Notes: generated from the letters alone by a model not told the origin. Counted from the first letter of the stretch, positions 39,933 to 48,502 are shown. The stretch: DNA of 64,000 nt from an uncultured Alphaproteobacteria bacterium (GCA_934254675.1 CAKQLP010000002.1:15731-79730), one strand, 5' to 3'. Program-made: numbers and translations.

Positions 39933-40411
39933 TGGCGGGAAAAAGTAAAAAAGCGGATTATATTTCTACCGGTCAGGTGGCGCAAAACCGACGGGCGCAT
40001 TTTGATTATATCATAGACGAAGTTTTTCAGGCCGGTTTGGTTTTAACCGGAACAGAGGTTAAATCACTGCGCTTGGGGCACGCCAATATCAATGACGCTT
40101 ATGGCATTGTTGAAAAAGGCGAACTATATATGTCTAACATTTTTATTGCCGAATATGTTAATAAAGGATATGAAAGCCACGTTGAACGACGTAACCGCAA
40201 ATTGTTGCTTCATCATAAAGAAATTGTAAAAATTCAAAATTCTTTAGCGAGAAAAGGCACGACCTTGATTGCCATGAAACTATATTTTGACAATCATGGC
40301 AGAGCAAAGTTGGAAATAGGTTTGGGACGGGGTAAAAAGCTTTATGATAAACGGGAAACGGCGAAGGAGCGTGATTGGAATCGTGAAAAATCTCGGTTGA
40401 TGGCTCATTAA
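39932..40411 (+). CDS. smpB: SsrA-binding protein
   Basis: SmpB-like 159-aa protein with a basic C-terminal tail. Start overlaps the bactofilin stop. Confidence 0.9.
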   Translation: MAGKSKKADYISTGQVAQNRRAHFDYIIDEVFQAGLVLTGTEVKSLRLGHANINDAYGIVEKGELYMSNIFIAEYVNKGYESHVERRNRKLLLHHKEIVKIQNSLARKGTTLIAMKLYFDNHGRAKLEIGLGRGKKLYDKRETAKERDWNREKSRLMAH

Positions 40412-40550
40412 TGTTTTTGAGAAAACAATATTTTAATTTAAGGGGATAAACTTGTTTGGTTTATTTCCTTTTTTTGTTAAGCGCGGGCTGAGAAAATACT
40501 GCCGTTGAAATGTTTTAGAATCAGCAAACAAATTGGTTGGCTGAAAACAT

Positions 40551-40590
40551 AAAAAAAGAAACGTCCAAGTTAGGAGCAAGGACGTTTCGG
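40551..40590 (-). terminator. Rho-independent terminator of pilin-like gene 1
   Basis: GAAACGTCC-(N13)-GGACGTTTC hairpin followed on the minus strand by TTTCTTTTTTT. An identical hairpin follows pilin-like gene 2. Confidence 0.55.
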
Positions 40591-40687
40591 AGAAAAACCG
40601 CCGTAATGAGAGTGAAAACCGGCGATTATCGGAAAAGCCGAACGATTGAAACCCAAAGGTTTCTATAACCGTTAAGCTTTTCCAAAC

Positions 40688-41482
40688 TCAGTAAAACTTC
40701 CATAAAATGGAGTTTGCGTTTGCTGTTGAACTACAAGCTTTTGCCGCTTCAGCAACATTCATTGGCGTTTTTTGGGTAGTACCATTAACACATGCCGCCA
40801 TTGGTGTTGCTGTAGGTGTTGCTGTAGGTGTTGCAGGTGCAGGTGTTTCAGGTGTATTTAATTCCATATTGGCAGAGGCGAGTGCCGTGCCGTTTCCGCC
40901 AATGTTGTTTGATGCTGAACTAGCAGTAACTGAACCACCTGAGCAAGTTATTGATTGAACACCTGCAGAATCAGCGGTTTGTTCCGCACCAGAAGCTACA
41001 ATGCCGACTAAACCGGAAGAATAGCCGGAACCCCAATCATTGGTCGCCAAGGTCACGCAGGCTTCTTTCGGCAAGCCATTCATGATAACAAAAAATCCTC
41101 TGTTAGTCCCACTATCTGATCCGGCATCCATTCCGGTAACTGTGCCGGCACCGATAACAACCGAACCCAAGAAAGCGTTTTGAAGTTTTTTTCCTGTGGT
41201 TGAATTTGTACTATCCGCAATTTGCAGTTCATCCGGCACCACACCCATATGAATAGCCGAATCATTATCCAACCCGCTGTAATTTTGTTGTTGCGCGTAC
41301 AAAGTTCTGATGTTGGTCACAATCATGGCGACGTTGTCCGCAACTTTGTTTGTTTTAAATTTAGTCATGGCTTTTGAATAGCCGGCAATACCGCCAACGC
41401 TCAAAACGCCGATAATGGCCAGTACGCCCAACATTTCAATCATTGAACGGCCTGACTGTTCTTCATATTTATAATTATTCAT
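40688..41482 (-). CDS. type IV pilin-like protein (prepilin N-terminal domain), Thr/Pro-repeat containing
   Basis: Class III signal (..EEQSG|RSMIEMLGVLAIIGVLSVGGIAGY) with Glu at +5 and a hydrophobic alpha1 helix. C-terminal (ATPT)n repeats. The paralog at 47285 shares its first ~60 aa. Confidence 0.7.
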   Translation of the reverse strand: MNNYKYEEQSGRSMIEMLGVLAIIGVLSVGGIAGYSKAMTKFKTNKVADNVAMIVTNIRTLYAQQQNYSGLDNDSAIHMGVVPDELQIADSTNSTTGKKLQNAFLGSVVIGAGTVTGMDAGSDSGTNRGFFVIMNGLPKEACVTLATNDWGSGYSSGLVGIVASGAEQTADSAGVQSITCSGGSVTASSASNNIGGNGTALASANMELNTPETPAPATPTATPTATPMAACVNGTTQKTPMNVAEAAKACSSTANANSILWKFY

Positions 41483-41753
41483 TGTTTTCTCTTCCATAAT
41501 TCTTGTTAACACAAAAAAAGCCACCGATAAGGCAGCTGGAAGTTGGAAACTACTGATCAAAAAATAGTGTAGCATGTTAGCTATGTACATAGCCTATTTT
41601 GCTACCTTCCAGCCATATGACCAGAAGGCACGCACAAAATTTACGCCCTTGTACAAAGACGTTTGACCAAAGAGGTTTCCACACCCCAGACAGACTATCA
41701 TCCATCCATCTATCACTCTAACAAAGATGTTTGATAATGTAAAGAATATTTTT

Positions 41754-41996
41754 TTAATTATCCTTTTCATGTTTGCTGACATCTTGTTTTTCCAAGGCGG
41801 GGTTAGCTTTGGAATGTTCAATTTTGACTATTTCCGTGTGATAGTGGTCAACAATGTGCAGAAGTTTGTGCCAAAAACCTTCCTCGTAGGCAACAATAGT
41901 TCCCCATACAGCCATAATAAACATTAGTACGGTGGAAATACTTTCAGCTATGTCCAATTTTTCTTTTAGCGTGTATTTTTGTTTTGTGTTTTGCAT
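41754..41996 (-). CDS. small hypothetical membrane protein (80 aa)
   Basis: ORF with one hydrophobic helix. Weak evidence. Confidence 0.25.
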   Translation of the reverse strand: MQNTKQKYTLKEKLDIAESISTVLMFIMAVWGTIVAYEEGFWHKLLHIVDHYHTEIVKIEHSKANPALEKQDVSKHEKDN

Positions 41997-42148
41997 ATTA
42001 AATAAATAGGCATTTTATTTTTTAAAACAAGGTTGTTGTTTGGAATGACCAAGTGGTTAAGGGCAATGGTGATTTTATCGGCGCTTTCAAAATAAAATTT
42101 CGCCTTTACATCAAATAAGAAAGCTTGTTTTTATTTAATACTTTTTCC

Positions 42149-42832
42149 TTAAATCGCGGCAAAATGCTTTTTGATAAGCTGATGAATTTCAAGCATGTTG
42201 TCGCTGACGGCAAAAGCGCCGTTGTGGCGGCAAGCCGCGGCATATTCAGGCGTGTTGTGCCCTGTGGCGCCAATGTAGGCTATAACCGGAATGTTTGCCG
42301 CTTTGGCCGCTTTTACACCGGCTAGAGAATCTTCAACAACCAGACATTGCGCCGGTTCAAAATTCATTTGGCGGGCGGCGTATAGAAAAATGTCCGGCGC
42401 CGGCTTGCCGTTTGGCACCATATAGGCGGTAAACGTGTTTTTATTGTTAAAATACTTGTCCAATCCCAATTTGAATGTTTTTTTGTTATGTTTTTCAATT
42501 GTGGCGCCGGTGGCAACGCATTGCGCAAAGTTTTTATCGTCTAAAATTTGCTCGATGTTTTCGGTTAGAGTTAGTTCGGACGCAATTAAACGATCTTCGT
42601 TTTGGTGAATTTCTTGCCAAAAATTGTCATTCAGTTTCAGTTCCGGAAAATCATGCGCCAGCAAATCGACTTTTGTTTTGTCGGCTTTACCCTCCAGATA
42701 ACGTTTTTGCTGTTCTGGCGTCAGGGTGAAATTGTATAGTTTTTTCAAGGTGTCAACCCAGTTTTGCACCCACAAATGCTCGCTGTCGGCTAAAACGCCG
42801 TCAAAGTCCCAAATGATTAAATTTTTAGTCAT
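42149..42832 (-). CDS. HAD-superfamily hydrolase (subfamily IA, phosphatase/phosphomutase-like)
   Basis: Motif I (DFDGVLADSE), motif II (T) and motif III/IV (K...EDSLAGVKAAKAA). Overlaps the upstream GT gene by 8 nt. Confidence 0.8.
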   Translation of the reverse strand: MTKNLIIWDFDGVLADSEHLWVQNWVDTLKKLYNFTLTPEQQKRYLEGKADKTKVDLLAHDFPELKLNDNFWQEIHQNEDRLIASELTLTENIEQILDDKNFAQCVATGATIEKHNKKTFKLGLDKYFNNKNTFTAYMVPNGKPAPDIFLYAARQMNFEPAQCLVVEDSLAGVKAAKAANIPVIAYIGATGHNTPEYAAACRHNGAFAVSDNMLEIHQLIKKHFAAI

Positions 42833-44459
42833 GTTCTTTATCCTGTGTTTTTGTTCGATATTCGTCTTTTAAAATCATTAATTGTTCAATCTCGGTTGTT
42901 TTGTAATATTTGTTGATAAGTTCTTGATTCCATATATAGGCGTCAACGCTCGGAATTTTAACCATTAAGTCCGTCAAAGCGTAGTCCGGAATGTTTACAT
43001 TTTGATAAAGTCGAACCAAATCGGCGTTATATTCATACAATTTTTTAGCTCGCCGCTCATTAAGCGGGGTATTTGTGTAGTCTTTTGCAAAGATGACAGC
43101 CGGCATCTTTTGGGTTATCAGCGTGTCCAGATTGTTTTTTTTGCCAAAATTTATTTCATAGATATAACCGATGTCGTTAAGCTGAAACCAGACATAAGAA
43201 GGATCGGGACGAAACAGGTTATAGATGCAGTTGTCGGCGTTGAAAACCGTTTCGTCAGGCGAAGTATTCTTAATAACATAATCCGCCATCCTTAAAACAG
43301 TCGTGCTGGAATTTTTGCTCGGTTCGTTGGTATAGATGAATGAGGCGAAAATGATACAGGAAATTCCAAGAGCCGTGTGATAAAGCTTGTTTTTGAGTGG
43401 CGTGTCGTGCTTGAAAAAAGAGCAGGCAATGACAATGGCGGCAAGTTCAAAAAACAATGAAAAATAATGCACATACGGTGAAAATGTCAGCAATCGTATG
43501 CCGAGTTCGGCAAAAAGCAAAAAAATGATACATTTGCTGTAAATGGTATTATAAGATAAAAAAACGGGATAGAAAAGAATTGCCGCGCAACTAAATAGAA
43601 TTATGGAGGGCGTAAGAGTTATTGTTGCATATCCCAGTGTTGTCGGCATGTTTATTATTGTGTTCAGCGGAGTTGTTTTTATAATGTGAAAGCCATAATA
43701 AACGGGAATAAGACTGTTGAGCTTGTAATTTAATTCAAAATAAAGCGCAAACATATTGTGCCAAAAAAGCCATGCCGTAAAAATGCCGAATAAAAGCAAC
43801 GGCAAACAAAGCGCTTTAAAAAAATCTTGGTATTTTATTTGTTTTTTTATAAGCGCGTGAAAAATAAAAGCTCCCAAGAAAAACAGCAAGAGAATGATTT
43901 TTTGCAAAAAGAAAAAAGAGAGCGTGAACAAGGCAAATGAAATTGTTAATTTAATTGATTGTTTTGTTTCAAAATACCTGAATAAAAAATATAAACCGCT
44001 CCAAAAACAGAGATTCATAAAAACATCTGGTCGGAATTCAACAAAATTTCGGCTTAAATAATCTCCGCAACCAAAAAGCAAAAGAGCCAAAACCCATTGT
44101 TTGCCGGTTCCAAAATAACGTGTAATGATTTTATAAATGAAAAACCAACTTGTCAAAACGGCTAAAAAAACGGAAAAACGAGCCACATAATAGACATTGA
44201 CATTGTCAAACATAAAACCAGTGATGGGCGCAAACAAATACCATAACAGCGGGTTATGATGTTCAAAAAAATCAAGATAAGGCGTTTTTCCGCTCCAAAC
44301 AAGCCACGACGCGTGTATATGCTCCAGTTCATCAACATTCAACAAACCGCTGTTTGTAAAAAGATGAGCCAAAGTTTGCGCCATAAATAACAAAATGAAA
44401 AGTGTGTTTAATAAGTTTTTTGATGACGGGAGTTTTATTTTAGCTTTTAGTTGTTCCAT
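42825..44459 (-). CDS. ArnT/PMT-family (COG1807-like) GT-C membrane glycosyltransferase
   Basis: First periplasmic loop NVDELEHIHASWLVWSGKTPYLDFFEHHNPLLWYL matches the DE....ML.SGDW..P.L....YFEKPPL.YW signature of ArnT/PMT_2 enzymes. Multiple TM helices and a C-terminal soluble domain. Confidence 0.6.
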   Translation of the reverse strand: MEQLKAKIKLPSSKNLLNTLFILLFMAQTLAHLFTNSGLLNVDELEHIHASWLVWSGKTPYLDFFEHHNPLLWYLFAPITGFMFDNVNVYYVARFSVFLAVLTSWFFIYKIITRYFGTGKQWVLALLLFGCGDYLSRNFVEFRPDVFMNLCFWSGLYFLFRYFETKQSIKLTISFALFTLSFFFLQKIILLLFFLGAFIFHALIKKQIKYQDFFKALCLPLLLFGIFTAWLFWHNMFALYFELNYKLNSLIPVYYGFHIIKTTPLNTIINMPTTLGYATITLTPSIILFSCAAILFYPVFLSYNTIYSKCIIFLLFAELGIRLLTFSPYVHYFSLFFELAAIVIACSFFKHDTPLKNKLYHTALGISCIIFASFIYTNEPSKNSSTTVLRMADYVIKNTSPDETVFNADNCIYNLFRPDPSYVWFQLNDIGYIYEINFGKKNNLDTLITQKMPAVIFAKDYTNTPLNERRAKKLYEYNADLVRLYQNVNIPDYALTDLMVKIPSVDAYIWNQELINKYYKTTEIEQLMILKDEYRTKTQDKEHD

Positions 44460-44520
44460 TTTTTTGCCTTATTATATTCTAAATGTAGCATAAAAGAATA
44501 TTGGCGGAGAGTCAATTTAT

Positions 44521-45270
44521 ATGTATTTGGATTTTGCAAAAATACCAATTTATGCACTGGTTTTGAAAAAATGTCTTACATGGATTGAAAATATTTTATA
44601 TAACATATTAGGTGTTATGTATTTAGAGGAAATAATGTTTTTAAATAATTTCTTTGAAAAATTTTCCGGTCGGTTGTGTTGGAATGTTAACTTTTTTACT
44701 TTTTTAGAAGTTTTTCTTATAATTCTGACGCCGTTTATGGTGAAATATGCCAATCCCGAATTGTTTATAGAAGGGAATGTCGTTGAAAATTTGCAGTTGG
44801 TTATACTGGTTGTGGCGTTTTGCGTGGCATTTAGAGCGCCAAAAGATAAAAAAATGTTTAGAGCATTGGCGTTGGTCGTTATTTTGCTGCTGATGCGCGA
44901 AACAAATTTGGGGCGAGGGTATTTTTGTGCAAAATATTTGTCACCAGAGGATATTTGTCGTTGGAAAAATCTAAAATATGGTTTTTTTGTGGAACCTTTG
45001 CGCAATTTGTACGGGCTATTCATTTTGTATTATGTTTGGCGGCAAAAGGTTTATAAAGTTGTGGGGCAATATATGTTGAAAGCGCCGTTATTTGTTTGGG
45101 ATTTGAGCATTTTTGTCGGTGCGGTTGTAACAGCCACTTTGGCGGAGTGGCCGCAAATTGATAATGAAATTTTGGAAGAATCTTGTGAAACTTTGATGTA
45201 TGTTGCGTTTTTGAATTGTTTATACCGCTATGAACGATGTAAAATTAAAAATAGTGAAATTGGTGATTAA
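44521..45270 (+). CDS. hypothetical membrane protein (249 aa)
   Basis: Several hydrophobic helices. Divergent from the GT-C gene. Confidence 0.4.
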   Translation: MYLDFAKIPIYALVLKKCLTWIENILYNILGVMYLEEIMFLNNFFEKFSGRLCWNVNFFTFLEVFLIILTPFMVKYANPELFIEGNVVENLQLVILVVAFCVAFRAPKDKKMFRALALVVILLLMRETNLGRGYFCAKYLSPEDICRWKNLKYGFFVEPLRNLYGLFILYYVWRQKVYKVVGQYMLKAPLFVWDLSIFVGAVVTATLAEWPQIDNEILEESCETLMYVAFLNCLYRYERCKIKNSEIGD

Positions 45271-45301
45271 GATTTTTAGTTTGTTCAATAAATTTAATGA
45301 C

Positions 45302-45336
45302 ATAAAAAAACAGCCTCGATGCAAATAGAATCGAAG
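45302..45336. terminator. bidirectional Rho-independent terminator
   Basis: CAGCCTCGAT-(N10)-ATCGAAGCTG hairpin with flanking A/T runs. Confidence 0.45.
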
Positions 45337-45348
45337 CTGTTTAAATTT

Positions 45349-45561
45349 TTAGCCAATAATGTGGAAACAGTGCAAGATTAAACCGATAATGGCGCATAAT
45401 GCTAAAAATAAAACCATTATCAGTCCGGAAATATCCGGCGCGGTTTTTAATGTGTCATCAAGTTTATGTTGGCGAATTTTTTTGTCAACATAAAGACCGA
45501 CTGCCAAAAGAATGAAGTAGCAAACAATAACCACACTCCAAAAAATAGTTGTAGGACTCAT
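45349..45561 (-). CDS. small two-TM membrane protein (70 aa)
   Basis: ORF with two hydrophobic segments. Confidence 0.3.
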   Translation of the reverse strand: MSPTTIFWSVVIVCYFILLAVGLYVDKKIRQHKLDDTLKTAPDISGLIMVLFLALCAIIGLILHCFHIIG

Positions 45562-45673
45562 AACAATAATTTTAATAATACAAATTTAGTTTTATAAATA
45601 GATTATTTTTTATTTTTTGTCAATAAATTAAGTAAAAAAAATAGCCATAGGTTTCAAAACCCAAGGCATTCTT

Positions 45674-45895
45674 TTAGCAACAAAACAGTCCGACTTTTGT
45701 TAAAATAAAGCCTGTTGCCGCAATCAAAAGCGCATAAACGCAGATGAATGTTTTGGTAAAGTCCCCACGATTTGGAGACGCGGTATTCTTTTGCGTTGCG
45801 TAACGATCTTTGTTTTCTCGGCGATTAATAATAATGCTGAAAACAGCAGCGGCTGAAAGAGCGGCAAGAACGAGAATACCAAAAAATAATCCCAT
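45674..45895 (-). CDS. small two-TM membrane protein (73 aa)
   Basis: ORF with two hydrophobic segments. Confidence 0.3.
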   Translation of the reverse strand: MGLFFGILVLAALSAAAVFSIIINRRENKDRYATQKNTASPNRGDFTKTFICVYALLIAATGFILTKVGLFCC

Positions 45896-46037
45896 AATGT
45901 TAAAAAAATTTAGTTAAATAATTAATAAATAATTCAAATTCGGCGCATAAATTAGCATGATTTTTTTTATTGTCAATAAATAAATGCTAATGTAATGTGA
46001 ATTTTAATGATTATATACGCATATGGAGGAAAAAATA

Positions 46038-46913
46038 ATGAAAAAGATTTTATTTTTTGCTGTTGCTTGTTTAACAGCTTGTCATCAAGAAAATAATTTG
46101 ACGACGGAACATTTGGATATTACTTTGGAAAATGAAAAAGCTGAAACCCAAATCACGGTTGACTATCCGCAAAGTATAAATAATGGAAATTTAGATGCGC
46201 TCAGACAGCAGGTTGTGACATTTGTGTTGCCAAATTACTCTGAAAGTTTGGAAAATGGCGCTGATATTTTTAAGCAGTTTGCGGAAGAAAAAAATAAAAT
46301 GCTGTCAGCGGATAATGATTTTGGAATGGCTATGAAATTTGCTTATAACGGAAACATTTTATTGGTGGCGCAAAATGAAAAATTTGCGACATTTACCTTG
46401 GATGCTTATATTTATACCGGTGGCGCGCATGGTATGCCAATTTGGTCGTCTAAGACTTTGCGTAAAACAGACGGAATGATTTTGAATGATAAATTATTGA
46501 ATGAAAAAGTTAATTCAGAGGCGTTCAAAAAACTTTTGGAGCAAGGTGTTAAGACTTATTTTACAGTGCAAAAAGGGGCTTTTTATCAGTGCGATTTTCA
46601 ATCGGATAAATTACAAAGCGAGATATTTGAAAATTATAAAATAGATGATTTGCCTTTGCCGCAAGAAAAGCCGTTTTTAACAAAAAATGGCGTGGGTTTT
46701 GTTTATATGCCGTATGAAATTTCTTGGTATGCCAATGGGCGGATAGCGTTTGTTTTACCATATTCGCAAATGACAGATTATATGTCTGAAGATGCTTTGA
46801 ATTTGGTGAAAAATGTTAATAAAAATGGCAAAATCGAAGCTTATGTCGATGAACAAACTCGACAGAAATATCAAGATTATTTGGCTCAGCCTGAACATAA
46901 AATCTGTCAATAA
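46038..46913 (+). CDS. DUF3298/DUF4163-like lipoprotein (RsiV/PdaC-type fold)
   Basis: GGAGG RBS. Lipobox LTAC. ITVDYPQ... and YIYTGGAHGMP motifs characteristic of the DUF4163-DUF3298 pair. Confidence 0.6.
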   Translation: MKKILFFAVACLTACHQENNLTTEHLDITLENEKAETQITVDYPQSINNGNLDALRQQVVTFVLPNYSESLENGADIFKQFAEEKNKMLSADNDFGMAMKFAYNGNILLVAQNEKFATFTLDAYIYTGGAHGMPIWSSKTLRKTDGMILNDKLLNEKVNSEAFKKLLEQGVKTYFTVQKGAFYQCDFQSDKLQSEIFENYKIDDLPLPQEKPFLTKNGVGFVYMPYEISWYANGRIAFVLPYSQMTDYMSEDALNLVKNVNKNGKIEAYVDEQTRQKYQDYLAQPEHKICQ

Positions 46914-46944
46914 GATATTTGGAAAAGGTGTTTTTCCCTGTCAT

Positions 46945-47175
46945 TCTCGGACATGCTTTATTAAACACATTTTAAATGTCATTTTCGGATGTGTTCTTAC
47001 TTTTTTCATGTCATTCTCGGACGTGTTCCGAGAATCCATATAAAATGATAAAGGAATGGATGGATCCTCGGGTCAAGCCCGAGGATGACGATAAATAATA
47101 AAGGATGACATAATAAAAAAAACACCCGAGGATGACGCAATAAAAAATACTCAAGGGATGACATTGAAGAGAGAG
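46945..47175. repeat. cluster of short GC-rich palindromic/direct repeats in AT-rich intergenic DNA
   Basis: TGTCATTCTCGGACRTG x3. Perfect palindromes ATTCTCGGAcgtgtTCCGAGAAT and CCTCGGGtcaagCCCGAGG. Direct repeats RGGATGACR x4 at about 21-27 bp spacing. Confidence 0.6.
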
Positions 47176-47284
47176 ACTATAACTAAAGTCATATAACTAT
47201 TAGAATATTGTTTTAAATATTAAAATGTGTTTTAATAATAATATAATGTGCAAATTAACATTATATTATTTAAGGAGAAAAACA

Positions 47285-47917
47285 ATGAATATGATGAAAA
47301 CAAATGAAACCGGTCGTTCCATGATTGAAATGCTCGGTGTTTTGGCGATTATCGGTGTGCTGTCCGTTGGTGGTATTGCCGGCTATTCCAAAGCTATGAA
47401 CAAATTTAAAACAAACAAGGTTGCAGATAATGTGTCTATGATTGTGACCAACATCAGAACCTTGTACGCGCAACAAAATAATTATGCGGGTTTAAATAAT
47501 ATAACAGCTATTCAAATGGGCGTTGTTCCAGATGAATTGGGTACAGACACTACTTCAGGTACTTTAACAAATGCCTTTTTAGGTGGTGTTAATATTGGCA
47601 CAGCAACAGTTACCAGTTTGGATGCTGGTACATCTGGCGCCAATAGAGGATTCTTTTTAACCATGAACGGTTTGACTAAAGAAGCGTGCGTGACCTTGGC
47701 CGCCAATGACTGGGGTTCCGGTTATTCCGCCGGTTATGTGGGAATGACTGTTTCTGGCTCGGCTCAAACTAGTTATAACACGTCATTTGCTGTAAATTGC
47801 ACGGATCGTGGAGCAGCTAAATGGTGTGCAAGCCAAGGACCGATGCAGGTTTCTCAAGCGGCCACTGGTTGTTCTGCCACTGGAAACACAAATTCGATTA
47901 CTTGGGTATTCTACTGA
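47285..47917 (+). CDS. type IV pilin-like protein, paralog of 40688..41482
   Basis: AAGGAG RBS. Signal ..NETG|RSMIEMLGVLAIIGVLSVGGIAGYSKAM. C-terminus NSITWVFY versus NSILWKFY in the paralog. Confidence 0.7.
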   Translation: MNMMKTNETGRSMIEMLGVLAIIGVLSVGGIAGYSKAMNKFKTNKVADNVSMIVTNIRTLYAQQNNYAGLNNITAIQMGVVPDELGTDTTSGTLTNAFLGGVNIGTATVTSLDAGTSGANRGFFLTMNGLTKEACVTLAANDWGSGYSAGYVGMTVSGSAQTSYNTSFAVNCTDRGAAKWCASQGPMQVSQAATGCSATGNTNSITWVFY

Positions 47918-48005
47918 GTTTGGAAACGCATGACGGCTTGAGCGATATCCGATAGCCGCCATGTCTCCAAAGACTGCCGTTACTCTCATTGTGGCAGTTT
48001 TCTCC

Positions 48006-48045
48006 GAAACGTCCTTGCTCCTAACTCGGACGTTTCTTTTTTTGT
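48006..48045 (+). terminator. Rho-independent terminator of pilin-like gene 2
   Basis: GAAACGTCC-(N13)-GGACGTTTC followed by TTTTTTT. Identical stem to the pilin-1 terminator. Confidence 0.55.
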
Positions 48046-48183
48046 ATATAACATATTGAATAGTGAAATATTTTTTTGGCTTTTTAACATAGACATTAGG
48101 TCTAAAACCGCTTTAATTTGTTAAAAAATCCTTTATATTTTCTTTATATTATTTTTACTTTTTTTAGCAAAAGGAGGTCACCA

Positions 48184-48375
48184 ATGAAAACGCATACCTT
48201 TGCCAACGTTATTATACATGATTTGTCGTCAAAATCTCGTTTGCATGACAATTTTGAAATTAGCCGCGGAATTATCAGCGAGCTGGTTGAAGGCTGGAAT
48301 AAAAATATTTATGTTATTCCTAATCAAGCATTGCATTTATATAGCGAAAAGACAAAAAAATATTTGTATATGTAA
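48184..48375 (+). CDS. small hypothetical protein (63 aa)
   Basis: Strong AAGGAGG RBS 7 nt upstream of the ATG. Confidence 0.3.
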   Translation: MKTHTFANVIIHDLSSKSRLHDNFEISRGIISELVEGWNKNIYVIPNQALHLYSEKTKKYLYM

Positions 48376-48502
48376 AAAAATTTGTTCGCGACTCCTTAAT
48401 TTTAGGTAAAAATCTTGTCAAGATGTCTTTTATTTTAGATTTAAAACCTTCTAACATTGCTTATATCAGTTTCACAACAATTATTTTTATATGAGGTGAA
48501 AA

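Follow-up and report, generated by a model that had tools for sequence, protein, structure and literature searches.

The window, by which we mean the whole 64-kb stretch of DNA that was analysed, comes from an uncultured alphaproteobacterium and contains two complete type IVb-like pilin genes, 40688-41482(-), referred to here as pilA (A), and 47285-47917(+), referred to as pilB (B), with no third pilin copy. The 7.5-kb segment that they bound carries the following genes and repeats:

40688..41482, minus strand: pilA, a complete type IVb-like prepilin of 264 aa (Bundlin 2e-12, PilS_N 4e-11)
41754-41996, minus strand: 80-aa ORF upstream of the pilA promoter (ORF call)
42149-42832, minus strand: HAD-family hydrolase (Pfam HAD_2, 5.7e-24)
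42825-44459, minus strand: PMT_2-family GT-C glycosyltransferase of 544 aa (PMT_2 27.4 bits, cut-off 26.1)
44521..46913, mixed strands: block of inner genes without evident link to the pilins (ORF and Pfam calls)
within 44521..46913, plus strand: membrane protein of 249 aa
45349-45561, minus strand: small hydrophobic ORF
45674-45895, minus strand: small hydrophobic ORF
46023-46913, plus strand: PdaC/DUF3298 lipoprotein
46930..47170, no strand assigned: REP-like short-repeat cluster of TGTCATTCTCGGAC / CCCGAGGATGAC units and a palindrome (families D2 and D16)
47285..47917, plus strand: pilB, a complete type IVb-like prepilin of 210 aa (Bundlin and PilS_N)

The inner genes named in the initial annotation (glycosyltransferase, HAD protein, small membrane ORFs, DUF3298 lipoprotein and repeat cluster) were all recovered by ORF calling, Pfam and repeat searches, and the 80-aa ORF and the HAD and PMT_2 genes were each called in contig L001 and in other contigs from the same locus. 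The paralogy, coordinates and inverted geometry of the two pilins were also correctly described there, but the label "head-out" has to be replaced, as the genes are divergent and transcribed outward, with their 5' ends facing inward and their 3' ends outward (tail-out).

Both products exceed Pfam cut-offs of ~22 bits for the two type IVb domains, pilA with Bundlin at 48 bits and PilS_N at 43.5 bits, and pilB with PilS_N at 59.6 bits and Bundlin at 43 bits; the Pfam N_methyl motif scores under its cut-off. The pilA protein, whose start codon was set by comparing RBS-ATG positions across loci, has the prepilin motif G/RSMIE, an N-terminal hydrophobic helix and a variable C-terminal region, and it includes a Thr/Pro-rich stretch encoded at 40787-40858. 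Identity between the pilA and pilB proteins is 54% overall, rising to 73% across the ~170 N-terminal residues that align (pilB 1-163). A class III signal peptide is recognizable from Gly at -1, Glu at +5 and the ~20-residue hydrophobic helix that follows, and the segment G/RSMIEMLGVLAIIGVLSVGGIAGY is invariant in 16 of 16 aligned family members, as are Cys135, Cys172 and Cys196, which flank the hypervariable stretch. The closest solved relatives in the PDB are BfpA (3.5e-11), then TcpA and CofA. By these sequence features, pilA and pilB are assigned to the type IVb major-pilin (Bundlin/PilS_N) family of an uncultured gut alphaproteobacterium. They share with the type IVb major pilins (BfpA of EPEC, TcpA of V. 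cholerae, CofA of ETEC and PilS of Salmonella/R64) matches to both Pfam domains, the prepilin-motif residues at -1 (Gly) and +5 (Glu), a +1 residue other than Phe, the hydrophobic helix and the conserved C-terminal cysteines, whereas they differ from the known members in a short leader peptide (11-12 aa) with Arg at +1, and in forming a multicopy family dispersed in uncultured gut Alphaproteobacteria with no adjoining assembly operon. No NCBIfam equivalog matched the window pilins. More than 7,800 pilin homologues were found, and 131 pilin N-terminal matches, dispersed or in tandem arrays, occur in 87 sequence sources (the window and 86 loci); nearly all of these copies, including pilA and pilB, have a start codon, signal peptide and RBS. 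Neither a prepilin peptidase nor assembly machinery was detected in the Pfam-covered 10 kb on either side of the window locus. At the locus L003, one pilin paralogue has a Peptidase_A24 gene at a distance of 2.5 kb, and another adjoins a VirB8 gene.

Each pilin gene runs into a structured 3' untranslated region:

40549..40690, minus strand: pilA 3' UTR, four helices from the stop codon, with the terminator hairpin at 40558-40588 and U-run at 40551-40557 (covariance model R1, 124.6 bits)
47915..48045, plus strand: pilB 3' UTR, the same four-helix element, with the terminator hairpin at 48006-48036 and U-run at 48037-48043 (R1, 130.3 bits)

It had been proposed that both pilins are followed by the same terminator hairpin and further related sequence, and the similarity does extend past the hairpin: a 63-nt block of the two flanks is 92% identical, and the ~15 nt directly after the stop codon (TACTGAGTTTGGAAA) are identical in A and B, while the middle ~50 nt cannot be aligned as sequence and yet form the same helix. 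The hairpin arms GAAACGTCC/GGACGTTTC occur four times in the window, only at the two pilin 3' flanks, against an expectation of 0.32. The element is ~135 nt long and comprises a long bipartite hairpin (P1/P2), a hairpin P3 with the conserved loop ACUCUCAU, the linker UUUUCUCC, and P4, an intrinsic terminator whose loop UUGCUCCUAAC is conserved. The P4 stem has 9 bp (GAAACGUCC/GGACGUUUC) and is followed by 7 U, as in intrinsic terminators; all nine pairs can form in every one of 14 distinct sequences (100%), two of the nine with compensatory changes, and the stem is absent from a simple terminator scan because its 13-nt loop is larger than the 3-8 nt allowed. Alignment and covariation analysis of the flanks support the four-helix structure, with 92% of alignment cells paired compared with 34-56% in slid controls and with 10 compensatory pairs. 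Read on the sense strand of the pilins, the element has G-U pairs at positions that would be A-C mismatches on the reverse strand.

Across ~1.9 Mb of related DNA, the covariance model R1 detects 20 copies, and this distribution bears on whether the 3' flank could be generic repeated DNA (REP/MITE-like, an uptake sequence or a bidirectional terminator) that lies beside the pilins by chance. Such an origin might be suggested by the palindromic hairpin, which is flanked by T and A runs and could terminate transcription in both directions, and by the REP-like repeats nearby at 46930-47170, but all 20 matches begin exactly at a pilin stop codon, none occurs away from pilins in the ~1.9 Mb or in the remaining 63 kb of the window, and covariation is found in the helices upstream of the terminator, which together make a chance association highly improbable. 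The initial suggestion that the conserved 3' UTR could be a functional RNA is supported by the covariation and by the finding that the element occurs only after pilin stop codons. It is missing from most pilin loci of the family and belongs to one pilin subfamily, and the comparative analysis shows that it has been kept by selection acting on the sense-strand RNA. Judged from sequence alone, it would end transcription and protect the abundant pilin mRNA. Since its invariant loops are more conserved than a plain terminator or stabilizer would need, part of its function probably goes beyond those two roles, and the loops may bind some factor. In S. aureus, the regulatory 3' UTR of icaR pairs with the Shine-Dalgarno region of its own mRNA. 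The pilin 3' UTR is similar in presenting C/U-rich conserved single-stranded motifs (UUUUCUCC and CUCCU) within a structured UTR, and these are complementary to the GGAGAAAA-type RBS of pilA and pilB, as can be read directly in the sequences; unlike in icaR, the complementarity is short and shows no compensatory change, and pairing of the pilin 3' UTR with its own RBS is therefore speculation.

The 5' control regions of the two genes contain the following elements:

41715..41743, minus strand: sigma-70-type promoter for both leader and pilA (TTTACA-17-TAGAGT, the -10 preceded by TG; promoter scan)
41512..41710, minus strand: pilA 5' leader RNA of 199 nt, a candidate conditional transcription attenuator (model R2, 209.9 bits)
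41688-41707, minus strand: leader helix P0
41672-41687, minus strand: leader local hairpin
41621-41629, minus strand: leader segment S2
41605-41613, minus strand: leader segment S3
41535-41542, minus strand: leader segment S4
41513-41537, minus strand: leader terminator and U-run
41489-41495, minus strand: pilA RBS, downstream of the leader
47220..47247, plus strand: candidate simple pilB promoter (TTAAAA-16-TATAAT, AT-rich upstream; 10/12 matches in the promoter scan)

The structured pilA leader lies within the 7.5-kb segment and had been missed in the initial annotation. Promoter and leader are conserved together at unrelated loci, and the two promoter hexamers keep their positions across 10 loci of different genomic contexts. 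In an alignment of 33 leader sequences, 93.4% of cells are paired compared with 35-45% in slid controls, and compensatory changes are seen at 50 of 61 pairs, where this main-helix covariation was counted on model-fitted alignments and the alternative helices lay outside the model. RNAalifold predicts 54 pairs, 20 of them compensatory, and the single-sequence fold has z = -4.7. Three mutually exclusive helices are possible in the 3' half. The anti-antiterminator is formed by CCUUCUGG:CUGGAAGG and the antiterminator by GCUGGAAG:CUUCCAGC; these alternative helices are 98.5-98.9% paired, and the antiterminator (98.9%) contains four compensatory pairs, including a GGAUG/CAUCC double change, and shares 3 nt with the terminator, whose helix is 97% paired with a U-run after it. 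The distance from the terminator to the ORF is only 14-36 nt, and the promoter scan gives no evident second promoter in this gap. Covariation thus demonstrates a terminator/antiterminator architecture at the comparative level, and with such competing helices upstream of pilA it is predicted that pilA is made only when the terminator is bypassed.

The same leader is also found upstream of lipoprotein, outer-membrane-protein and glycosyltransferase genes in related bacteria, and tandem copies occur, so that it looks like a transcriptional on/off switch for cell-surface genes. Either a small ligand or an antitermination protein could provide the signal. Riboswitches with terminator and antiterminator helices control pili and other surface genes, an example being the c-di-GMP-II riboswitch upstream of pilA1 in Clostridioides difficile. 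The pilA leader resembles it in being a structured RNA between promoter and pilin gene with a terminator and a competing helix, and it resembles surface-gene riboswitches more generally in being common to other surface-related genes and in its tandem copies. It matches no Rfam 15 family in sequence or structure, the c-di-GMP classes included, and it differs from the C. difficile case in its host clade of uncultured Alphaproteobacteria. In the RfaH/ops, LoaP and Bacteroides UpxY systems, operons for surface structures undergo leader-dependent processive antitermination. Here too each unit lies behind a conserved leader that contains a terminator, and the downstream set of pilins, glycosyltransferases, outer-membrane proteins and lipoproteins is like the RfaH and UpxY regulons, though those systems use short DNA or RNA signals and the pilA leader is a ~200-nt covarying multi-helix RNA. 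A gathering-threshold scan of the window against Rfam 15 returned three tRNAs only, and scans at E<=10 of 40400-41800 and of positions 9650-10050 of L040 gave chance-level matches only; neither the leader nor the 3' UTR belongs to any Rfam 15 family, and the leader was previously uncatalogued. No leader was found with R2 upstream of pilB, where the upstream sequence is the same in L092 and L093. With its simple AT-rich promoter and no leader, pilB may be a differently regulated alternative to pilA.

The geometry of the locus had led to the suggestion that the segment is bounded by long inverted repeats and could undergo homologous inversion. Repeats (I1-I4) do bracket the segment, but they are only 72-98% complementary, the upper value applying to the 46-nt arms 40551-40596 / 47998-48043, and exact A/B identity extends over no more than 29 nt in the 3' UTR and 23 nt in the CDS. 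Nor are the first ~180 nt of the two coding regions near-identical as had been stated, for the DNA identity is 80% over 228 nt and 72% over 539 nt. Among the N-terminal 75 codons, 67 residues are identical, but 27 of these codons differ synonymously and third-position identity is 59%. Heavily diverged synonymous sites together with exact identity of at most 29 nt indicate that A and B have had no recent exchange.

About ten contigs from different gut metagenomes, with flanks 97-100% identical to those of the window (L001, L087-L093 and L214, with L002 and L216 partial), all have the gene order and orientation of the window, and no flipped order or A/B chimera was found at this locus among them; these are consensus assemblies, in which a rare minority isoform would not show. 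No integrase, resolvase or Piv-type Pfam family was found in the called genes within 10 kb on either side, where several small ORFs have no Pfam match. The collinearity of every covering contig, the absence of a Pfam-recognizable recombinase and the weak A/B homology mean that inversion of the segment as a programmed invertible element is not supported. The nearest precedents for it are the Piv inversion of Moraxella bovis/lacunata and the R64 shufflon, where a dedicated site-specific recombinase lies beside a short invertible segment whose junction is inside one pilin gene. Inverted alternative pilin segments are common to those systems and this locus, and inversion would likewise switch pilin type, but here two complete genes lie 5.8 kb apart with unrelated genes between them, and neither a nearby recombinase nor a second orientation was seen. 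A rare RecA-dependent inversion between the pilin genes or their 3' UTRs, acting as a low-frequency phase switch, was considered as well. In its favour are the real inverted arrangement, the exact matches of 29 and 23 nt, two 5' control regions that differ, so that a swap would have a phenotype, and the shuffling of 5' and 3' modules in evolution (in the paralogue L003b, below); were crossovers to occur in the coding regions, leader-controlled and leaderless promoters would be exchanged between two variable C-terminal regions. Homologous recombination is known to depend on minimal processing segments, however, which makes homology of 72-80%, interrupted every ~10-20 nt, a poor substrate, and in other species the paralogues are direct, tandem or far apart, so that the inverted geometry is not conserved. 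With none of the contigs flipped, we regard such an inversion as quite improbable. The 7.5-kb stretch is best explained as ordinary chromosome, bounded by chance by two diverged, complete pilins of a multicopy family.

The pilin genes themselves vary strongly between strains, with coding regions 48-88% identical within flanks that are ~99% identical. Sliding identity and mismatch maps locate the crossovers at two places, the conserved block encoding the N-terminus and the area around the stop codon or 3' UTR. At the pilB locus there are at least three allele classes (P0001, P0010 and P0019) in otherwise ~99% identical strains; in L091, the replaced tract runs from 47359 to 47911, and the CDS differs at 150 positions while the 3' UTR is 100% identical. 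The paralogue L003b is a mosaic with an A-like 5' end, a B-like middle and 3' CDS and an A-like distal 3' UTR, and P0004 consists of the N-terminal part of P0001 joined to the C-terminus and proximal 3' UTR of P0005. For L093, whose contig ends 49 nt past the stop codon, the chimeric allele may have been created during metagenome assembly, and a search for the donor of a 95-nt mosaic patch in the pilA of L091 found none. Divergent coding regions within ~99% identical flanks, together with the crossover sites, support recombination between pilin copies on an evolutionary scale, and comparison of the alleles shows them to be mosaics among strains and paralogues. Pilin diversity arises through homologous exchange of the variable middle and 3' portion of the CDS, the breakpoints lying within the block that encodes the conserved N-terminus and either at the stop codon or inside the 3' UTR.

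The gene conversion first proposed, between copies of the pilin for antigenic variation, is therefore supported as evolutionary history rather than as a programmed switch. In Neisseria, pilE/pilS antigenic variation involves a conserved Sma/Cla repeat 3' of the genes. If the N-terminal block and 3' flank were likewise dedicated recombination anchors, variable cassettes would move often between many pilin loci, including A and B. The likeness lies in the many pilin-related loci, the conserved N-terminal and variable C-terminal blocks, the mosaic alleles and the conserved sequence just 3' of the genes. The positions of the tract ends, one inside the conserved part of the 5' CDS and the other at the stop codon or in the 3' UTR, would also fit this reading. 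The Neisseria-type layout of an expression locus with promoterless truncated cassettes is not found here, since copies are near-universally full genes and no silent 5'-truncated cassette occurs among those examined. No G-quadruplex motif, (G3+N1-7)x4, is present on either strand in 40000-48500, and exchange is documented only between strains or paralogues over evolutionary time. The compensatory changes and G-U pairs of the 3' element indicate selection on RNA and not on DNA homology, and its absence from most family loci, like the divergence of A and B, argues against programmed exchange. Programmed conversion is accordingly unlikely. We favour, with a probability of roughly 0.7, an explanation that combines ordinary, non-invertible DNA with structured pilin 3' UTRs, a pilA attenuator and replacement of pilin alleles.

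Variation extends to the intervening DNA. The TGTCATTCTCGGAC / CCCGAGGATGAC repeat pattern matches only at 46930-47170, and this cluster varies in length among strains, with between-strain identity of 48-67% compared with ~99% in its flanks. It sits where the sister species has the leader, and L017, the sister species, carries PdaC and the 73-aa ORF elsewhere, downstream of deoB-yfiH-amidase.

The window (37% G+C) carries two pilin-like ORFs where the initial annotation placed them, and no third pilin copy; both match Pfam Bundlin and PilS_N above threshold, and in both the prepilin motif G|RSMIE precedes a hydrophobic helix.

40688-41482, minus strand: pilA, pilin-like ORF, 264 aa
47285-47917, plus strand: pilB, pilin-like ORF, 210 aa

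The genes are transcribed divergently with their 3' ends outermost, which reverses the "head-out" wording first used for them and leaves the accompanying description of their flanks standing. Overall the proteins share 54% identity, rising to 73% across ~170 aligned N-terminal residues (pilB residues 1-163). The 5' coding parts, which had been called near-identical over ~180 nt, share just 80% DNA identity across 228 nt, and of the 75 N-terminal codons 67 encode identical residues, 27 of those with synonymous differences, at a third-position identity of 59%. In the 3' flanks, the hairpin arms GAAACGTCC/GGACGTTTC have four matches against 0.32 expected, exclusively downstream of the two pilin genes, and the hairpin with its surroundings forms 46-nt arms at 98% complementarity. 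The similarity is not limited to this terminator hairpin, since the flanks share a 63-nt block at 92% identity and are identical for ~15 nt past the stop codon, with ~50 nt between these blocks that cannot be aligned as sequence. Because synonymous sites have diverged, the coding regions are only 80% identical, and the longest exact matches between the two copies are 29 nt (3' UTR) and 23 nt (coding region), the conservation lies at the protein level in the coding region and at the RNA level in the 3' flank, and not in concerted DNA identity. The original observation of a pilin pair with shared flanks was thus largely right.

Pilins of other species, and pilins at unrelated loci, are followed by the 3' UTR element too, and RNAalifold with manual inspection resolves four helices in it.

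P1: begins directly after the stop codon, GUUUGGAA/UUCCAAA
P2: interior, sequence-variable, always paired
P3: carries the conserved loop ACUCUCAU
P4: terminator, with the conserved loop UUGCUCCUAAC and a U-run

Within 1.44 Mb of pilin-seeded loci a covariance model of the element retrieves 15 copies, with 5 more in 0.44 Mb of other loci, and all of these copies start at a pilin stop codon; the element is confined to one pilin subfamily, and other pilins have plain terminators. In 14 distinct sequences, pairing reaches 92% of cells, compared with 34-56% in slid controls; compensatory changes affect ten pairs, as seen with GUCC/GGAC, GCCC/GGGC, and ACCC/GGGU in the terminator. The paired percentage of P3 drops to 78% in this alignment, where MAFFT sets the helix one column off for A-type sequences, which form their own CGCCG/CGGCG stem. 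The proposal that the conserved 3' UTR is a functional RNA, for which folding of the two flanks and a search for covariation had been suggested, is therefore supported by the structure, the compensatory pairs, and the placement of every copy at a pilin stop codon. We infer that the element terminates transcription and stabilizes the mRNA, and its invariant loops suggest an additional binding partner. A scan of the window for trans targets of these loops returned, at full length, just trivial antisense self-matches. The reverse strand of the 3' UTRs (40588-40670, plus strand; 47783-48006, minus strand) displays GGAG-N13-ATGAGAGT, resembling a ribosome-binding site plus start. An antisense ORF there (GGAG-N13-ATG) was considered and rejected, as the peptides encoded at the two genes, of 20 aa and 68 aa, bear no relation to each other and the G-U pairs of the element lie on, and favor, the pilin sense strand; the motif is probably incidental to the conserved C/U-rich loops. 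Complementarity also exists between the linker of each 3' UTR and the ribosome-binding region of the other gene, without covariation support: over 10 nt the pilA linker GUUUUUCUCC complements the pilB region GGAGAAAAAC, and over 8 nt the pilB linker GUUUUCUC complements the pilA region GAGAAAAC.

41489-41495: ribosome-binding region of pilA
47273-47283: ribosome-binding region of pilB
40589-40599: 3' UTR linker of pilA
47996-48006: 3' UTR linker of pilB

The most interesting content of the region is the pair of RNA elements, chiefly an attenuator-type leader upstream of pilA, where promoter, leader, and terminator-like hairpin lie 14-36 nt before the ORF; this arrangement is kept at unrelated loci.

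41743-41715: pilA promoter, TTTACA-17-TAGAGT
41537-41519: terminator-like hairpin of the pilA leader, with U-run

RNAalifold predicts 54 pairs in the leader, 20 of them with compensatory changes, and the window's copy folds at -75 kcal/mol (z = -4.7). The covariance model R2, built on this leader (198 positions, 61 pairs), has 38 matches at E<1e-5 in pilin-seeded loci, and in 33 sequences 93.4% of cells are paired, compared with 35-45% in slid controls, with compensatory changes at 50 of the 61 pairs. Two helices outside the model have even better support, namely a local hairpin GGGG/CCUC (98.5% paired) and the helix GCUGGAAG:CUUCCAGC (S3:S4, 41605-41613 with 41535-41542; 98.9% paired, including the double change GGAUG/CAUCC). 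The latter competes with leader helix P3 (CCUUCUGG:CUGGAAGG) and overlaps the 5' arm of the terminator by 3 nt, so that the leader has an anti-antiterminator, an antiterminator, and a terminator placed behind a multi-helix sensor domain, which is the anatomy of a riboswitch or a protein-dependent attenuator. For want of any compensatory change, the outer P1 of the first RNAalifold/covariance-model structure (GGGGU with ACUUC) was discarded; its place is probably taken by the local hairpin GGGG/CCUC and the S3:S4 helix. Rfam 15, scanned at gathering threshold over the whole window and at E<=10 with both RNA elements, yielded tRNAs and chance matches alone, and a full-text literature search found nothing on the pilin family, its UTRs, or the pili of the gut RF32/CAG-495 group; on this basis we describe the leader and the 3' UTR as uncatalogued RNA elements. 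One further leader copy (locus L084, 16241-16422) is followed by merely a 10-codon pilin remnant and looks like a decayed pilin locus.

At pilB the R2 model detects no leader; the gene is preceded by an AT-rich region with a promoter-like site (47220-47247), and this in turn by a strain-variable cluster of REP-like repeats. In the sister species represented by locus L017, R2 does find a leader at the deoB-adjacent pilin. The REP-like cluster (46930-47170) consists of short TGTCATTCTCGGAC and CCCGAGGATGAC units plus a GGATCCTCGGG...CCCGAGGATGAC palindrome, occurs in the window solely here, differs by indels between otherwise ~99% identical strains, and occupies the position of the sister species' pilin leader.

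Metagenome contigs were also scanned, independently of pilins, with a pattern from the leader core, and the matches were scored with R2. More than 50 genuine leaders resulted, of which about one-third precede pilins, and this unbiased scan rules out the pilin-specific leader that the pilin-seeded loci had suggested. The other leaders precede lipoproteins, signal-peptide proteins, XRE-type regulators, an Opacity-like outer-membrane beta-barrel protein, and glycosyltransferases (GT92/GT2, Gly_transf_sug/Caps_synth, RgpF), and given this range of genes the leader appears to mark a regulon of cell-surface genes. Two to four leaders may stand in tandem before a single gene (L096 257-1166, L132 1102-1547, L106 634-1071), which in L096 is that of the Opacity-like protein; such an arrangement is known from some tandem riboswitches. 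A more far-reaching reading, which is tentative and to which we give a probability of about 0.3, is that the leader belongs to a riboswitch class, or a class of protein-dependent antitermination RNA, that is new and in no catalogue. In uncultured gut Alphaproteobacteria it would switch a cell-surface regulon made up of type IVb pilins, surface glycosyltransferases, lipoproteins, and Opacity-like outer-membrane proteins, with the pilin-specific 3' UTR as a second regulatory RNA. The 3' UTR, with its invariant C/U-rich loops, might act for example as an anti-Shine-Dalgarno element or as a 3'-UTR-derived sRNA coordinating the choice of which pilin paralogue is made. The leader combines full terminator/antiterminator switch anatomy with unusually strong covariation ahead of many surface-antigen genes, and its signal, once found, would show how these bacteria remodel their surface and would add an orphan riboswitch or antitermination class.

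The inverted geometry of the pilin pair had also raised the possibility of homologous inversion of the 7.5-kb segment they bracket. The same locus is found in L001, L087, L088, L091, L092, and L214 and partially in L089, L090, L093, L002, and L216, contigs from different metagenome samples whose flanks are 97-100% identical to the window. Gene order and orientation are constant in all of them (SmpB>, <pilA, <orf80, <HAD, <PMT_2, mem249>, <s70, <s73, PdaC>, pilB>, o63>, o90>, deoB>), with the qualification that these are consensus assemblies, which rare inverted molecules could escape. There is no A/B chimera at the locus among these contigs and no Pfam-recognizable recombinase within +/-10 kb. 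In the sister species L017, whose DeoB protein is 90% identical, a pilin again adjoins deoB, PdaC lies beyond an amidase gene, and the SmpB and PMT_2 genes are missing from the 10 kb upstream; therefore, the 7.5-kb block is not a conserved unit. Pilin paralogues in other species are direct, tandem, or far apart. Inversion of the segment thus finds no support in these contigs. The inverted geometry is ordinary and should not be read as a phase-variation switch. The short-read contigs L002, L089, L093, and L216 tend to end at the pilin genes or a short way beyond them (~175-190 nt ahead of pilB, in the pilA N-terminal region, 49 nt past the pilB stop, and in the REP cluster), which is consistent with these blocks being genomic repeats, and chimeric joins there are possible.

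Gene conversion between pilin copies, the other proposal drawn from this geometry, is supported as evolutionary history only. Strains of the same species have flanks ~99-100% identical and pilin coding regions down to 48-88%. In L091, the 150 differing positions of pilB all fall in 47359-47911, the 3' UTR is identical to the window's, and the encoded allele (class P0010) is 76% identical to the window's protein; in L092 a third class (P0019) is 64% identical, the 3' UTR and flanks again being ~99% identical. The pilA gene of L091 has a dense 95-nt patch of differences (41183-41277), for which no identical donor was present among the loci examined, and length changes in its Thr/Pro repeat. The paralogue L003b, on a 558-kb contig in another context (between DUF1189 and GroEL), is 93-100% identical to the window's pilA over nt 1-180 and mostly 79-100% identical to pilB over nt 181-640 (67% in one gap-rich 60-column window), and its distal 3' UTR is nearer to that of pilA again. 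At the L093 pilB locus the 5' end is identical to the window's pilB and the 3' coding region and proximal 3' UTR match L003b at 100%, a mosaic that is possibly an assembly chimera, as the contig stops 49 nt past the stop codon. These alleles show that pilin modules have been shuffled by crossovers that fall within the conserved N-terminal block and near the stop codon or 3' UTR; pilA and pilB have had no recent exchange with each other. Because all copies are complete genes, a search found no G-quadruplex motif, and recent exchange between the two is lacking, a programmed switch is not shown. Alleles replaced sharply between conserved blocks make a concrete case in which the diversification of a commensal's surface antigens can be tested.

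pilB matches more than 7,800 database proteins, the single named one being annotated "type 4 pilus major pilin"; among solved structures, those nearest in sequence belong to the type IVb pilins BfpA (3.5e-11), TcpA, and CofA. The pilins, the GT-C protein, the lipoprotein, and the small ORFs all lack an NCBIfam equivalog. Species-representative genomes, when scanned, gave 564 relatives, nearly all in MAGs that bear the title uncultured Alphaproteobacteria and come from human and animal guts, and 131 pilin N-terminal matches were collected from 87 sequence sources (the window and 86 loci), with copies dispersed in unrelated contexts or in tandem arrays. In the family alignment the N-terminal ~65 residues are invariant, the core is conserved, and a hypervariable stretch lies between conserved cysteines. 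These poorly known gut bacteria have a large, fast-diversifying type IVb pilin family with two conserved RNA elements, and the pilins are likely to serve in colonization and to be targets of phages or of immunity. Just upstream of pilA (42149-44459, minus strand) are genes for a PMT_2-family GT-C glycosyltransferase and a HAD hydrolase, L019, L039, L042, and L044 likewise have PMT_2-like genes no more than 10 kb from pilins, and the pilA variable region contains TPETPAPATPTATPTATP (40787-40858, minus strand), whose length differs between strains; together, the neighboring enzymes and this Thr/Pro-rich stretch may indicate pilin O-glycosylation. In other MAGs of the clade, three to five pilin paralogues stand in tandem over a few kb (L011 10001-18369; also L010, L037, and L071), and neither leader nor 3' UTR element was detected at these arrays. 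Several alphaproteobacterial pilin contigs are binned under unrelated phyla, L012, L015, and L018 as [Ruminococcus] gnavus, L013 and L014 as Bacteroidaceae, and L046 as Lactobacillus sp., likely through binning contamination or mislabeling, and several of these also carry the leader and the 3' UTR. Finally, SmpB adjoins a pilin in two distant species as well (L042 9269-10612, L044 9271-10456), where the genes are divergent, whereas in the window they are convergent.
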